DNA of 64,000 bases from Escherichia coli (GTDB lineage: Bacteria > Pseudomonadota > Gammaproteobacteria > Enterobacterales > Enterobacteriaceae): assembly GCF_016026235.1 (NCBI RefSeq), contig NZ_CP065613.1. One strand, written 5' to 3'. A model generated the notes under the pieces. That model was not told where the DNA came from and did not search any database. It saw only the letters and a list, made by a program, of their open reading frames with translations. Positions 4,742-9,878 of this stretch are shown piece by piece (positions within the stretch are counted from its first letter, which is position 1; each line of letters opens with the position of its first letter). A program made the translations under genes and the position numbers.

Positions 4742-4999
4742 TCAGCGCAGCGCCTCCTGCACCAGTTTTTCAAACTTTCCGACTCTGGTTTCCAGCTCTG
4801 CCACACAGTCCACCAGCTCATCTACTGCTTTCTGTGCGCGATGCTTCGCCTGCATCAGTTCCCGAAGCGCGGGTACCATATCTTTACGGATAGCGTCTTT
4901 TGTTATGCCCGTTTTTTCGAGTTGTTCAGCATGACGCAGCATTTCCTGCGCGTGTTTACGCAATTGTTCAGGGGTAAAAGTCATTGTCTGGTTGTTCAA
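4742..4999 (-). CDS. hypothetical coiled-coil protein (nin-region)
   Basis: 85-aa ORF whose start overlaps the DnaB-like stop (ATGA coupling). Confidence 0.5.
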   Translation of the reverse strand: MNNQTMTFTPEQLRKHAQEMLRHAEQLEKTGITKDAIRKDMVPALRELMQAKHRAQKAVDELVDCVAELETRVGKFEKLVQEALR

Positions 5000-6387
5000 A
5001 AGAAACGCTCCATCTTACTGCTGTCAGTTCGTTTATTACTGTATCTGCGCGGATTGCCGGGCTTCATGGGAGTGGAAAGCACCCGTGCACTTTCCTGGTC
5101 CACAGGCAGAAAATGTCCGTTATAAAAACGCCGGTAAATCGTTCCCAGAGAACCGTTACGTTGTTTCGTGATATTGATTTCTGCGATGCCCCTGGCCTGC
5201 GTATCCGGGTTGTACACTTCATCCCTGTAAAGCATCAGAATGATGTCTGCATCCGCCTCTATTTCTCCGGAATTTTTCAGGTCTGAGTTCATGGGACGTT
5301 TATTGGGTCTGGACTCCACACCGCGGGAGAGCTGGCTCAGCGCAATCAACGGAAAACCACCGGATTTTGCCAGGCCTTTAAGCCCCTTTGAGATTTCACC
5401 CACGGCAAGGTCATGACGCCCCGTGGTTCGGGTTTTTATCAGCCCGAGATAATCAACCACCACCAGCGCCGTTTCCGGATATTTAATCAGGTGGTGTTTC
5501 GTTGTTGCGCATATCTCATCAATGGCCAGGTTCGCCTGGTCCACCATCCAGATATTGCGCCCGGTCATCCGCCCCACCCCTTGTGAGAAACGCGCCCAGT
5601 CTTCATCTTCAAAGTGAGCCACAGATTTCAGGCGTGATACTGGCATCCCTCCAGCCGCAGACACCATACGTTCACCAATCTGGATGTTCGCCATCTCCAT
5701 GGTGAACAGAAGCACACCATGCCCCTGCTCAGTCACCTTGTCGATGATGTCCAGCGCAAGTTCGGTTTTCCCCATCGAAGGACGGGCGGCAATGAATACC
5801 AGGTCTCCGGGCTCCATACCGCCTGTTTTTGCGTCCAGTTCATCAATACCGGTCATCAACGTCCTGGATTTCTCCAGCCCCTGATTCCGGCATTCAACAC
5901 GCTCAACCACTTCCGGAAGCACATCATCAATATGTACCGGCTGAATGACGCCCTTTCCTGTCGACAGTGTGACCATCATGTTCTGCGCATCCTTCAGGGC
6001 ATCTTCAGCTGCTTCACAGGTATGCGCATCACGTAATTTCTGCAGCGCCTCATTCAGTGTTTTTTCTGCATCGCGCAGTGCGGCATTGCGCCGCAACGCT
6101 GCAACATAGTGCTCCAGTGAAGACTTCACCCAGGTTTTACGCCCGGTATCAGTAATCACCGGGGCAAGTTCCGGCATCTCATTACACAACAGCACGGGGT
6201 CAATCACTCCTGAAACACGGGCCTGTCTGCAGATGCCCGTATAGATATCCTGATACGCTCGTACAGAAAAAACGTCCGCTGGCAGTGTGGCCAGAATATC
6301 CATCACTTCAGGATCTGCTCCGCGCAGAAAGAACGCGCCGATGACAGCGCCTTCAAGGTCATCGTTACGCCATACTGGAGTTGTCAT
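4996..6387 (-). CDS. DnaB-family replicative DNA helicase
   Basis: 463 aa; C-terminal RecA-like ATPase with Walker A (ARPSMGKT) and DnaB-type motifs; start overlaps loader stop. Confidence 0.9.
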   Translation of the reverse strand: MTTPVWRNDDLEGAVIGAFFLRGADPEVMDILATLPADVFSVRAYQDIYTGICRQARVSGVIDPVLLCNEMPELAPVITDTGRKTWVKSSLEHYVAALRRNAALRDAEKTLNEALQKLRDAHTCEAAEDALKDAQNMMVTLSTGKGVIQPVHIDDVLPEVVERVECRNQGLEKSRTLMTGIDELDAKTGGMEPGDLVFIAARPSMGKTELALDIIDKVTEQGHGVLLFTMEMANIQIGERMVSAAGGMPVSRLKSVAHFEDEDWARFSQGVGRMTGRNIWMVDQANLAIDEICATTKHHLIKYPETALVVVDYLGLIKTRTTGRHDLAVGEISKGLKGLAKSGGFPLIALSQLSRGVESRPNKRPMNSDLKNSGEIEADADIILMLYRDEVYNPDTQARGIAEINITKQRNGSLGTIYRRFYNGHFLPVDQESARVLSTPMKPGNPRRYSNKRTDSSKMERFF

Positions 6388-7271
6388 GCAGCCACACCTC
6401 TGATACGAGAACGGTAACTGGGCCAGTTAAACGACAACCAGTTGCGTCCCCCGTCTGTGATCCTGTCGGCAATTCGGGGACTGATGAACGCCCACAACTC
6501 TTCCGGTGAGAGGTTACTGATCAGAATGGTGGGCAAGATACTTTCGTACCTGGCGTTGATAATTTCCTGCAAAATAGCCATTTCAGCCGCGCTGCCAAAC
6601 TGAACGCCAACTTCGTCGATGATCAGCAAATCCATTGACGCATAACGCTCAATAACTTCATCCGCTGTTTTTTCGCTGTCATTCCGCCAGCAATTTTTCA
6701 CAGCACGGGTAAGGCGCATCACGTCGGTGATCTCCACACTGGCCAGATAGTTACGGATGATGTGTTTTGCCATTGATACCGCCAGATGATTTTTCCCGGT
6801 TCCGCAACTGCCGGTCATAACAAGACTGGTACCGTTCTCCAGCATATCTGGCCAGTTCTCCGCATAGCGGCGACAGGCCGCAAGATTCCTGGCTGCGTCA
6901 GGATTAACCTCCAGATAATTATCAAACTCGCAGTCCCGAAAACGCAGGGCAATTCCGGCGTTATCAGTCAGCTCTTCCGCCTTGATGGACGACAGCTCCA
7001 TGGTCAAATCGTTGGCCTCAGCGATTAAGCAGTCAGGGCAGCATGAAATTTTTTCTCTGTCCTCGCCATTACGATCGCTCCACACCAGTATATGCGTGTG
7101 ATATTCGCCATGTTTTTCGCAATATCCGCGACCTTCACGCATCAGGCAGGAACGATAAGGCCATGGCTTTTCGCCCTTCTGAGCAAATGCAATCTCTGCC
7201 CGTAACTCATCCATTCGCGCCTGTAGTCTTTTTTGTTGTTCACGCAGGTTAAACGTCATCATCGCTGTCAC
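6384..7271 (-). CDS. DnaC/IstB-like AAA+ helicase loader
   Basis: Walker A GSCGTGKNHLA, Walker B LLIIDEVG; N-terminal Cys/His-rich region; translationally coupled to helicase. Confidence 0.8.
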   Translation of the reverse strand: MTAMMTFNLREQQKRLQARMDELRAEIAFAQKGEKPWPYRSCLMREGRGYCEKHGEYHTHILVWSDRNGEDREKISCCPDCLIAEANDLTMELSSIKAEELTDNAGIALRFRDCEFDNYLEVNPDAARNLAACRRYAENWPDMLENGTSLVMTGSCGTGKNHLAVSMAKHIIRNYLASVEITDVMRLTRAVKNCWRNDSEKTADEVIERYASMDLLIIDEVGVQFGSAAEMAILQEIINARYESILPTILISNLSPEELWAFISPRIADRITDGGRNWLSFNWPSYRSRIRGVAA

Positions 7272-7272
7272 C

Positions 7273-8181
7273 TCAGAATGTCAGTTTGTCACTGGATTTA
7301 CCGAATTTGTCAGACATGGCTCCCAGGCCAGCCAGGACATCGACCTGTCGCTGTCGCCCACCTCCGGGAGCGGCTGGCTGTTGCCAGAAGTCTTCGAAGT
7401 GACGATCGGGTCCAAAGAACGTCGCTGCCTGCTTCACGAACTGTGTGCCGTTATTTCCTGTGGCACGTACCCAGGCAGCATACCGCTTCACGCCATCAAG
7501 CATGGTCTCCGGTTTTATTCCCTCCCTGATACGGGCTTTCCAGGCTTTGAAGGCTGCTGACTTGGAATTGCCACCAGCACGTTTGGGATATTCCTGCCAG
7601 GCCTGTTCAAATTCCGGTGAATATTCCTGTCGGGCAGAACGCGCTGGTGCAGACGCGTCAGCGGATGCGCCAATAGTGTTTTTACTCTCTGTAGTATTCT
7701 CTGAAGTAATCTCTGTTGTATTCTCTGTAAGATCGAAATTGGTTTTCCCTTCTCCGCGGCGAGGGGTTTCCCGTGTCCGCGGTGAAGGCTTTCCCTCCTC
7801 CGCGAAATTGGGTTTTACAGTTTCCCGAAAACGGGTTTCCCCATTTCGGGAAAACTGATTGTTTTCATTGATAATTTCATTAAGGCGCTCACAATCTATA
7901 CGGTAGAACATTTTGTGCTCAAGACGCTTGTTGGTTTCAACCAAAATGCCTCTGGACACAAGATGCTTACGCGCTACAGCCTGTTGTTCAAATGTAAGTC
8001 CGGTTTCGTGTTGTATCTCTTCACGCGTTTTATGTACGCCTTCCGCTGCATGTGCTTTATCCTGCCAGTAAAAAATCTGACCAAAGAAAATAACAGCGTG
8101 CGGACTTCCCATGTATTTAACGAGCCCAGGGTAATAAGCAACCGGATGCCCAAAATCGAGCAGAAGATCAGACGGACGCAT
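7273..8181 (-). CDS. O-like replication initiator (replisome organiser)
   Basis: Position upstream of loader/helicase; central region encodes aa repeats created by DNA iterons; ATG at 8181 with SD GGAGGTGG. Confidence 0.7.
   Translation of the reverse strand: MRPSDLLLDFGHPVAYYPGLVKYMGSPHAVIFFGQIFYWQDKAHAAEGVHKTREEIQHETGLTFEQQAVARKHLVSRGILVETNKRLEHKMFYRIDCERLNEIINENNQFSRNGETRFRETVKPNFAEEGKPSPRTRETPRRGEGKTNFDLTENTTEITSENTTESKNTIGASADASAPARSARQEYSPEFEQAWQEYPKRAGGNSKSAAFKAWKARIREGIKPETMLDGVKRYAAWVRATGNNGTQFVKQAATFFGPDRHFEDFWQQPAAPGGGRQRQVDVLAGLGAMSDKFGKSSDKLTF
7686..7855. repeat. phage origin-like iterons inside the O-like gene
   Basis: Four 12-bp direct repeats TCTCTGNNGTAN (7686-7730) followed by about five ~23-bp repeats of TTTCCC..TCCGCGG..GGG type (7745-7855). 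Confidence 0.6.
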
Positions 8182-8401
8182 AACCACCTCCCAGGCGTTT
8201 AAACATTTTTCCGGACTGAAACGCCACCAGCGGATAACTCAGGGTATGAGTACGTCCCTGAACCTGGCAGACAACCTTCTGGCTTTCTGTATTGACCAGG
8301 CAAACCCGCAGAACGTGACCGTTGCTGGTGGTGAACCACTGCCCCACTCGGGGGCAACGGTTGTATCGGTGATACAGGGAATTAACGACGCGGCGAATCA
8401 T
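8168..8401 (-). CDS. hypothetical small protein
   Basis: 77-aa ORF with SD GGAGG, start/stop overlaps with both neighbours. Confidence 0.4.
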   Translation of the reverse strand: MIRRVVNSLYHRYNRCPRVGQWFTTSNGHVLRVCLVNTESQKVVCQVQGRTHTLSYPLVAFQSGKMFKRLGGGYASV

Positions 8402-8760
8402 GGGCGCACCTCCCATTGATTACGACGGAAAACAGTGTGATTCAGGTTGGTTTCAGCCTCATGGAATGCTTCAATACAGCTCTCGTAGTACCGCATTGTG
8501 CGCAGACTTAACCCAAGCTGAAGCATCATCAGCCCATCAAGGGTGATGTAATAACCACGCAGGGAATCGCCATAGATGTGATAAGTGCCAGGTATGAAAT
8601 TGCGGGTAAAAAATTCGCGCGAGCAGTTCAGGTACTCGATTTTGTCGACGATATTCTGGTGCATGCGCTTGAAGTGGCAGGCAACATGCAAAGAAAAAAT
8701 AACGGCCTTGCCGTTGACGGTCTCAATTTTGAGGAATGAGTGGGTTGGGACTGTAGCCAT
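8398..8760 (-). CDS. hypothetical protein
   Basis: 120-aa ORF from ATG with SD GGAGG at 8760; track ORF extends upstream through low-complexity sequence, judged non-coding. Confidence 0.45.
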   Translation of the reverse strand: MATVPTHSFLKIETVNGKAVIFSLHVACHFKRMHQNIVDKIEYLNCSREFFTRNFIPGTYHIYGDSLRGYYITLDGLMMLQLGLSLRTMRYYESCIEAFHEAETNLNHTVFRRNQWEVRP

Positions 8761-9053
8761 GATGGCAGCCTCCGTTGACTGTGGAAAACTTCCACCACCG
8801 GAGGTGCAAATCTCGCTGGTGGCGGACTGAACAGGGTTTGCACTACCGGCGTCAACGGAGACCGGCGAGCCTTTCGGCTCCCCTGCCCAGCCCACCATAA
8901 TTCTGGCGTGCGTGAGCGCGGACGATAAAAAAGACGCTGGCGCGTCGTATATCGCCGTTGACAATTCCGGGGTGCAAATCCCGGCACCCGCTTTATAAGG
9001 TGCAGAGACAGTGTAACGTCCCGAAATTGCAGAATCAATATCTTGGAGAACAA

Positions 9054-9878
9054 TCATGCAGCACCCGCCAGTTCTTTATCGTGAGTAAATTCGCCATTCC
9101 AGTTTCTCTTCATGGGTAATGCACCTCTAAGATACTGGCGATAAATCCAGACCGCCCCTTTCTGGAGAAGAACTGGTGTGTACGAATAAAACCCTTCTTC
9201 ATAACCTGAATCGATATAGTGGTGACGTTCGGTCAGATACAGATCTCGGGCATATGCCTTTACACGCCATGCGGGGCTTCGCGATTCAGGACGCTCGTCA
9301 TAAAGCCAGTTGTGAGCCTCCAGAAATGCTGTGATGCGCTGAACATTTACTCCATTAAGTTGCTTGCAGAACTGAACCGGTGTCATGCCAGGCTGGAATA
9401 AATTTTCCAGATGTTCGATGTATTGGGCCTGACGATGAACGTAACTAATTGCTCTGTTTTTAGCCTCATATTCGTCCGCCCAGGCACGGGCAGCAGCAGC
9501 CGGATCGCTAAAATCTGGTAGGGATGCCATTGTGGTAAGACAGTAATTCCCCGTTTTACGAATTGAGGGAATTACCTCCGATGTAATCCACCGTTTAAAA
9601 CGTCTTGCCTGTTTTTTTCGACTTTTGATAATCAGCGCATAGAGCCCGGATTCATTGACCAGCAAAGGCTTACGTCCCGAACCTAAGTAATCCTTATATT
9701 CGGTTTTATCTTCATCATCGATGGACTGAAGGGAGATAGCAGTATTTGTCAGCCCCAGCGCGTTACATATATCCACGGCAAAAAACCATGGTGTTGAATC
9801 AATGACCACACTACGAACTGATGACAACAATTCACCAGTGCTTGATTTAAAATCGAAAACTTTGATATTGTTTTTCAC
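9054..9878 (-). CDS. Bro-N / KilA-C (ANT) family antirepressor
   Basis: Bro-N motif KVFDFKSSTGELLSSVRSVVIDSTPWFFAVDICNALGL; GTG start at 9878 preceded by GGAGA; C-terminal antirepressor-like domain. Confidence 0.75.
   Translation of the reverse strand: MKNNIKVFDFKSSTGELLSSVRSVVIDSTPWFFAVDICNALGLTNTAISLQSIDDEDKTEYKDYLGSGRKPLLVNESGLYALIIKSRKKQARRFKRWITSEVIPSIRKTGNYCLTTMASLPDFSDPAAAARAWADEYEAKNRAISYVHRQAQYIEHLENLFQPGMTPVQFCKQLNGVNVQRITAFLEAHNWLYDERPESRSPAWRVKAYARDLYLTERHHYIDSGYEEGFYSYTPVLLQKGAVWIYRQYLRGALPMKRNWNGEFTHDKELAGAA

Follow-up and report, generated by a model that had tools for sequence, protein, structure and literature searches.

Within the 64,000-nucleotide (nt) stretch of Escherichia coli contig NZ_CP065613.1 analysed here (hereafter the window), the gene for a 304-amino-acid (aa) phage replication initiator contains two arrays of direct repeats, four units of 12 bp and five units of 23 bp. 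The site is read as most likely the theta-replication origin of an E. coli prophage of the Shiga-toxin (Stx) type, lying inside the gene of its own initiator in the layout of lambda ori; the probability of this reading is put at about 0.75. In the proposed mechanism, the N-terminal winged helix of the initiator would bind the five 23-bp iterons (7741-7855), and the resulting nucleoprotein complex would distort or stress the DNA. Next to the iterons, the AT-rich, purine-skewed and weakly stable 12-mer array (7686-7733) would be the place of strand opening, and the C-terminal domain would recruit the DnaC-like loader and the DnaB-like helicase of the phage, encoded by the adjoining genes. The anatomy of the site, the joint inheritance of the N-terminal domain (N-domain) and the iterons, the spacing of 22-23 bp and the conservation of the 12-mers at the DNA level are read directly from the sequence.

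Structure of the repeat arrays

Both arrays lie inside the open reading frame (ORF) 7273..8187 of the minus strand (Table 1), mid-gene between the sequences encoding the DNA-binding domain and the C-terminal domain (C-domain), and the loader and helicase genes stand directly downstream. Repeat finding, self-match values and shuffles over the 64-kb window bear out the initial annotation as to the presence and the place of both families and their location in a replication initiator gene.

The 12-mers were detected by Tandem Repeats Finder with a period of 12, 3.7 copies and a score of 67, and the 23-mers with a period of 23 and a score of 80. The self-match was 0.778 at lag 12 (0.271 +/- 0.082 for all segments of the 64 kb) and 0.636 at lag 23 (0.251 +/- 0.047); both values were reached solely by segments overlapping the site, and both arrays are unique within the window. 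The 18-nt pattern TCTCTGNNGTANTCTCTG was matched three times, with 0.00 matches expected from 100 shuffles. The fourth 12-mer (7722) has retained only TCTCTG of the unit. The five 23-mers are spaced at exactly 23 bp, start on the plus strand with GGnTTT(C/T)CC, and belong to a zone of repetition that reaches 7736-7857. They contain internal dyads (inverted repeats I1, I3, I4 and I8), and the zone folded as single-stranded DNA gave z = -3.9. The motif TCCGCGG, initially named as frequent in the family, occurs in copies 1 and 2 and is TCCGCGA in copy 3, while copies 4 and 5 have TTTCCC..GGGAAA dyads instead.

In the protein, the 23-mers encode aa 111-151 and the 12-mers TENTTEITSENTTES (aa 152-167), so that the repeats occupy the predicted disordered linker between a winged helix-turn-helix (wHTH) domain and a helical C-domain. 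Repetitive amino-acid stretches had been ascribed to both families; they do arise from the 12-mers, whose peptide reads TENT TEIT SENT TES, but not from the 23-mers. As 23 is not divisible by 3, the reading frame shifts from copy to copy through all three frames, and the 23-mer array cannot be a peptide repeat.

With a GC content of about 0.31-0.325 and 65% purine in the sense strand, the 12-mer zone is one of the two 36-nt stretches of lowest stability in the initiator gene. The other, at 7849-7885 on the N-domain side of the iterons (GC 0.30-0.33), is the least stable 36-nt segment of the gene (-39.6 kcal/mol, with a gene mean of -49.8 +/- 4.3). The iterons are bracketed by these two easily melted zones. 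The sequence of iterons followed along the gene by an AT-rich, purine-skewed tract is that of lambda and P22, and in this respect the lambda-like layout proposed initially is upheld.

The 23-bp repeats as putative iterons

Among the viral matches listed, at least three tandem units stand upstream of the 12-mer array (in the sense direction) in 46 of 68 lineages, with a period of 23 in 38 of these, 22 in five, 21 in two and 20 in one. Downstream of the array such repeats were found in only 2 of the 68 lineages, and in the bacterial-genome matches listed the upstream period is 23 or 22. With loci grouped into pairs and lineages by k-mer thresholds that are arbitrary, 123 locus pairs were alike in N-domain and iterons and different in the C-domain, and only two were alike in the N-domain and different in the iterons. 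Five units, related in consensus, are retained by relatives whose protein is 31-71% identical. Phage mEp460 and Pantoea phage AH07 have the 12-mer array alone in common with the window (~97% over 40 bp), and in both the array is adjoined by five 23-bp repeats whose sequence is unlike that of the window. In these comparisons the 23-mers behave as iterons, with a sequence that varies with the N-domain of the initiator and a spacing of 22-23 bp that stays constant, and they look like the initiator's own binding sites. Since the period is not a multiple of 3 and the spacing is conserved, the 23-mers appear to be under selection as DNA and not as peptide.

The 12-mer array in phages and bacterial genomes

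An exact-pattern scan for three 12-mers in viral contigs gave at least 120 matches, with about 57 iteron-side and about 69 C-side flanks. Both viral scans combined comprise at least 69 lineages when either flank is counted, and the GC content of the flanks is 0.28-0.70. When one genome per bacterial species was scanned, the matches listed included Gamma-, Beta- and Alphaproteobacteria, Campylobacter and many Bacillota, as well as Cyanobacteria, Chloroflexota, Planctomycetota, Nitrospirota and Actinomycetota. The first scans demanded the exact DNA motif and thus gave a biased sample, which a codon-degenerate scan corrects in part; the lineages share ancestry, and the counts are not counts of independent events. 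Loci are labelled L005-L209 in viral contigs and L212-L331 in bacterial genomes. Three copies of the 12-mer are present in 61 of the 69 lineages, and the window has four.

The array stands inside annotated initiator genes of Staphylococcus phage 37, Bacillus phages BtCS33, phiCM3 and 0105phi7-2, Erwinia phage PEp14, Burkholderia phage DC1, Lactobacillus phage mv4, Xanthomonas phage SU1 and others. In Staphylococcus phage 37 (L332:1501-1535) four 23-bp repeats, unrelated in sequence to those of the window, are followed by AACAGAGATTACTACAGAGATTACTACAGAGACTAC, the C-domain and a gene for a DnaC-like loader.

All of the viral arrays listed are read in one frame, xCA GAG AnT ACn, in ORFs with a median of 312 aa and with the array near aa 153; the bacterial-genome matches listed have the same frame, ORF size and upstream repeats of 22-23 bp. 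Six candidates for arrays in another frame (the four best-scored ones and two in very short ORFs) yielded no genuine case: L226 is a GC-rich alternative-frame artefact, and L229, L240, L254, L257 and L307 are decayed remnants or short unrelated ORFs.

The choice of codons within this frame points to conservation of the DNA. When x-E-x-T three times was sought irrespective of codons, exactly the CAGAGAnTACnn spelling was found in 92 of the 120 loci listed, and its frequency expected from the codon usage of those genes is 1.9e-5; outside the array, GAG makes up 45% of the Glu codons in the same genes, and the xCA and AnT forms account for 26% and 22%. Nine of the 12 bases are fixed across the GC range of 0.28-0.70, including three third-codon positions, and the positions that vary include a second codon position, where N, I, T or S results. 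The free positions follow the genome GC weakly (Spearman 0.33, p = 0.005) and are AT-biased, at 0.22-0.40 GC. This drift of the free positions with genome composition points to long-term purifying selection on the fixed bases and not to recent exchange. By these measures the 12-mers are conserved as DNA, as a common element distinct from the iterons.

The repeats could in principle be products of slippage that encode a flexible, low-complexity linker and have no function as DNA, as their location in a predicted disordered linker and the single frame of the 12-mers, with its T-E-x-T peptide, would allow. However, the 23-bp units are read in three frames and keep their spacing, not their sequence, across lineages, while in the 12-mers synonymous positions are fixed far beyond the codon-usage expectation and a second codon position is free. 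Identity by zone is 0.63-0.80 in the iterons, 0.62-0.76 in the folded N-domain and 0.80-0.95 in the 12-mers, so that the iteron zone is conserved at least like the folded domain and the 12-mers more. An origin of the repeats as a mere peptide linker is very improbable on this evidence.

The array follows one family of N-domains. The N-domain profile matches 97 of 101 independent array-bearing ORFs among the genome matches listed, and residues P15, Q37, Y40, W41 and L76 are near-invariant in the family. The array is independent of the phylum of the host, of the type of C-domain (Phg_2220_C, DnaD-like and others) and of the set of helicase-loading genes. The N-domain family comprises 34,622 clusters at 50% identity (E <= 0.001), and at least three T-E-x-T units stand at the expected place in 30 of the best 150 N-domain clusters. 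Most of the best-scoring relatives are proteins of 360-880 aa with two matched stretches (P0017-P0054 and others), which suggests that the winged-helix domain is tandemly duplicated in part of the family. At the usual position in an ORF of 290 aa (L203:7917-7990), six copies of CAGAAAATACAA form a variant array, and a long tandem run of (C/T)CTCTGGTGTAA was seen in an ORF of 2116 aa without the initiator N-domain (L029:116-6463), which is probably an unrelated repetitive protein.

The initial annotation had regarded both families as iterons, which fits the 23-mers and not the 12-mers, since the same array is found beside unrelated iterons. That both are double-stranded binding sites of the initiator, in two iteron classes, is unlikely. 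Both families are indeed tandem direct repeats inside the initiator gene, and the tight link between the array and one N-domain family makes some contact plausible, but the 12-mer remains unchanged beside unrelated iterons and N-domains that are 14-30% identical, and its period of 12 bp and its position fit an unwinding element and not the iteron lattice of 22-23 bp. Being constant across such divergent N-domains, the 12-mer cannot be a target of the variable recognition surface by which the iterons would be read, and because the same array adjoins iterons of unrelated sequence it cannot carry the specificity of the initiator.

The array is probably an opening or helicase-loading element. We tentatively suggest, at somewhat less than even odds, that the triple CAGAGAnTACnn is an undescribed sequence-specific signal for origin opening or helicase loading, common to a very large family of phage initiators in many phyla. 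If it is such a signal, it may, with the same reservation, be a phage counterpart of the oriC 13-mers or DnaA-trios, and its reader either the initiator, through a conserved surface, or a universal protein of the replisome. Since the array tracks one N-domain family tightly, it would most likely be read by the initiators of that family, through a conserved surface that may bind one strand after opening, in the manner of plasmid Rep proteins; the alternative reader is a universal host replication protein. The 12-mer contains no DnaA box, and a reading as DnaA-trios fits only half of each unit and is unsupported. Each 12-mer also carries CTG, the E. coli primase site; primase is unsupported as the reader, as the nine fixed bases exceed what it would need. 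No description of the 12-mer array was found in the searchable literature, older papers on lambdoid and Gram-positive phage origins being outside the search. With the array as a sequence flag, origins could be located in thousands of phages and prophages from many phyla.

Several points weigh against the reading of the site as an origin with an opening element. Origin firing, binding of the iterons and opening of the 12-mers are all inferred, and the fold matches to plasmid initiators (see below) are weak, with E about 0.02. The comparative counts carry the bias of exact-motif sampling, come from the matches listed and refer to lineages that are not independent. In AT-poor relatives the array is just mildly less stable than its surroundings, so that easy melting alone does not explain it, and in the window the AT-rich stretch at 7849-7885 could equally be where opening begins. 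Finally, the constant reading frame leaves room for a role of the TExT repeats at the peptide level. The array can be recoded synonymously, which could separate the DNA role from the peptide role and bears on how iteron initiators choose the site of opening.

The initiator protein and its distribution

The 304-aa initiator was matched over its full length (residues 3-303) by PHROG 270, 'replication initiation protein', with E = 1.5e-65, an annotation that itself rests on similarity; no Pfam family (E <= 0.01) and no NCBIfam was matched. The near-identical genes of Stx phages are annotated from an ATG two codons downstream, at 8181. AlphaFold2 predicts a folded domain of topology H-H-E-H-H-E-E-H at aa 20-114 (predicted local distance difference test, pLDDT, 87-97), a disordered linker at about aa 115-185 and a helical C-domain at aa 186-245 (pLDDT 80-93). 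The first Foldseek match of the N-domain was the N-domain of staphylococcal plasmid RepA, followed by winged helices of the ArsR/MarR type, with weak E values of about 0.02, and a profile search of the sequences in the PDB retrieved wHTH regulators only (best E = 6.9e-6).

Identity to the 'phage replication protein O' gene of Stx1a- and Stx2a-converting phages is 95.6-97.3%. Eru7 has been named as a replication type of Stx phages, with Stx2_14040 as the reference (PMC8951638), and this reference phage (LC567818.1) is 95.6% identical to the window over 91% of the initiator gene. The window has the same replication region as Eru7; the Eru7 classification itself is of two genes next to cI. No description of an origin was found for Eru7: neither of the Eru papers mentions iterons, and the one that defines Eru7 contains no discussion of the origin (PMC8951638). 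The locus places a putative origin for this widespread replication type, and the copy number of Stx phages is driven by replication.

Of 5426 complete E. coli genomes, 100 contain the gene in full, with the product labelled mostly as hypothetical by RefSeq, and 1672 are matched by a part of it; the phage matches suggest that this part is the C-terminal half (7273-7677). RefSeq names for the partially matching genes are 'LvrA C-terminal domain-related protein' or hypothetical. Many database copies of the protein carry the label 'partial' and stop within aa 114-161, where the iterons or 12-mers are encoded (P0001-P0004, P0008 and P0012). Short-read assemblies may break at the origin, perhaps since several prophages per genome share the array.

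Phage phiP27 and others share positions 7273-7677 of the window alone, with a breakpoint 9 nt from the first 12-mer. In line with this, the C-domain passes between phages as one unit. At the same place as the arrays of the window, phiP27 (L002:3405-3580) has origin-like repeats of its own: CTTGCGGATCATGTTTTRAA occurs twice, 24 bp apart and with GATC, and after it the unit CAGAWTCTGAMGGKTCA stands in at least five copies (5-6 counted by eye) at spacings of 15 and 32 bp.

Such breakpoints at the array, the locus pairs that differ in the C-domain and the combination of one C-flank with different iteron sets would also be expected if the 12-mer array were mainly a recombination junction at which the N- and C-terminal halves of initiators are exchanged. 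This is quite improbable as its main role, in view of its conservation across phyla and across the whole range of GC content, the drift of its free positions with genome composition and the copy number, which is usually exactly three. A junction role and a role in replication are not exclusive.

Neighbouring genes and other features

The gene downstream of the initiator matches Pfam IstB_IS21 (3.1e-15) and Bac_DnaA (1.4e-6) and PHROG 50, 'DnaC-like helicase loader' (1.2e-89). The next gene matches Pfam DnaB_C (3.3e-72) and DnaB (2.4e-5) and PHROG 19 (1e-114).

Table 1. Features of the initiator locus (positions in the window)
Feature	Position	Strand	Remarks
DnaB-like replicative helicase gene	4996..6387	-	after the loader gene
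DnaC/IstB-like AAA+ helicase loader gene	6384..7271	-	immediately downstream of the initiator gene
Initiator gene	7273..8187	-	304 aa from GTG at 8187
C-terminal helical domain	7453..7632	-	aa 186-245, presumed partner-recruiting module
Array of four 12-mers	7686-7733	- (sense)	plus-strand unit TCTCTGnnGTAn, sense unit CAGAGAnTACnn
12-mer copy 1	7686		plus-strand letters TCTCTGTAGTAT
12-mer copy 2	7698		plus-strand letters TCTCTGAAGTAA
12-mer copy 3	7710		plus-strand letters TCTCTGTTGTAT
12-mer copy 4	7722		plus-strand letters TCTCTGTAAGAT
Five 23-bp direct repeats, putative iterons	7741-7855	-	sense consensus roughly TTTCGCGGAnnnGGGAAAnCC
23-mer copy 1	7741		plus-strand letters GGTTTTCCCTTCTCCGCGGCGAG
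23-mer copy 2	7764		plus-strand letters GGGTTTCCCGTGTCCGCGGTGAA
23-mer copy 3	7787		plus-strand letters GGCTTTCCCTCCTCCGCGAAATT
23-mer copy 4	7810		plus-strand letters GGGTTTTACAGTTTCCCGAAAAC
23-mer copy 5	7833		plus-strand letters GGGTTTCCCCATTTCGGGAAAAC
N-terminal winged-helix domain	7846..8130	-	aa 20-114, predicted iteron reader
Second AT-rich low-stability stretch	7849-7885		overlaps the last iteron and the end of the winged-helix coding region

An Rfam search of positions 6500-8800 gave no family over the repeats; the only matches, C4 and isrK, lie further upstream. Promoter-like and terminator-like matches were not enriched (1 observed and 1.1 in shuffles, and 1 observed and 1.5 in shuffles, respectively). 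Initiators of iteron replicons often autoregulate, and transcription passes through the region, so the repeats might be conceived as regulatory sites, for autorepression of the operon or for regulating transcription that enters the loader and helicase genes, and not as an origin. With promoter- and terminator-like matches not above shuffles, no Rfam match over the repeats and sites that lie mid-gene and not at the start of the operon, such a purely regulatory function is extremely improbable.

The C4 antisense RNA (8815-8902, minus strand; 80 bits, E = 1.7e-15) and isrK (8927-9000, minus strand; 50 bits) are located inside the 5' part of the ORF 8398-9057, which encodes Ash and Rha domains, beside an antirepressor-like gene. 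The arrangement, which stands upstream of the replication genes, is suggestive of an antirepressor module under antisense control, of the P1/P7 type.

Comparison with known systems

The origin proposed here is closest in layout to lambda ori with its initiator O and to the P22 origin with gp18. In both phages the origin likewise lies in the linker-encoding part of the initiator gene, between a DNA-binding N-domain and a partner-binding C-domain. Both have four to five iterons with dyads at 20-24-bp spacing (20, 24 and 23 in lambda). Downstream of these in the sense direction come an AT-rich tract with a purine-rich sense strand and then the helicase-loading genes. In lambda, oriλ lies within O and combines four iterons of 18 bp with an adjoining AT-rich sequence of 38 bp (PMC3349717); unwinding depends on this AT-rich tract (PMC7466680), whose purines are distributed very unequally between the strands (PMC5043065). 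The tract has a GC content of 0.21 with 71% purine, compared with 0.31 and 65% in the 12-mer zone of the window. Some defence systems sense phage origins inside initiator genes: enrichment of the Lamassu protein LmuB has been seen at the iterons of lambda O (PMC12663957).

The iterons of lambda and P22 differ, and the adjoining tract is common to both and contains a repeated ACAAAAGAC. Repeats of ACAAAAGAC(A) stand at intervals of 14-16 nt in lambda (L210:620-661) and in P22 (L211:32922-32960), and lambda also has one TCAGAGAATTCT, a single mismatch from a 12-mer of the window. The tract of these phages and the 12-mer array may share ancestry. The tract of the window is, however, a regular array of 12-mers with nine fixed bases (CAGAGAnTACnn) and not a plain A/T run, and its partners are DnaC-like and DnaB-like proteins, whereas lambda uses P and the host DnaB.

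The term 'O-like' used in the initial annotation is apt for this layout but not for the protein. The initiator does not match PF04492 (Phage_rep_O), has no significant BLASTP similarity to lambda O, and in an hhalign comparison of a 60-sequence N-domain profile with lambda O aa 1-138 the probability was 0.14%; among 63 scanned proteins, PF04492 matched lambda O and P22 gp18 only. Membership in the lambda O family was rejected on these Pfam, BLASTP and hhalign negatives.

The top structural matches of the N-domain were the RepA_N plasmid initiators (RepA of pSK41 and pTZ2162; PDB 4pt7, 4pql and 5kbj), with weak scores (E about 0.02, template modelling score 0.22-0.45). For RepA_N replicons, Weaver et al. 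2009 and Schumacher et al. 2014 reportedly place the origin iterons in the middle of rep as well, with a conserved N-domain on one side and a host-specific C-domain on the other. RepA_N replicons are those of Gram-positive plasmids, not of phages, and the initiator of the window has no Pfam RepA_N match.

The 12-mer array itself resembles the unwinding elements of oriC and RK2, which contain repeated sequence-specific motifs, with one strand bound by the initiator or Rep protein (PMC5043065, PMC4081077). The 13-mers of oriC and of RK2 oriV are likewise three to four tandem short AT-rich motifs adjoining the initiator sites; there the sequence matters and not AT content alone, and the 12-mers of the window are also conserved beyond base composition. 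Unlike these elements, the array of the window has a different motif and a period of 12, not 13, and it is protein-coding, always in one frame. The locus is very probably an origin inside the initiator gene of the lambda type, with one iteron family, and is set apart within this type by its regular and widely conserved non-iteron array of 12-mers.

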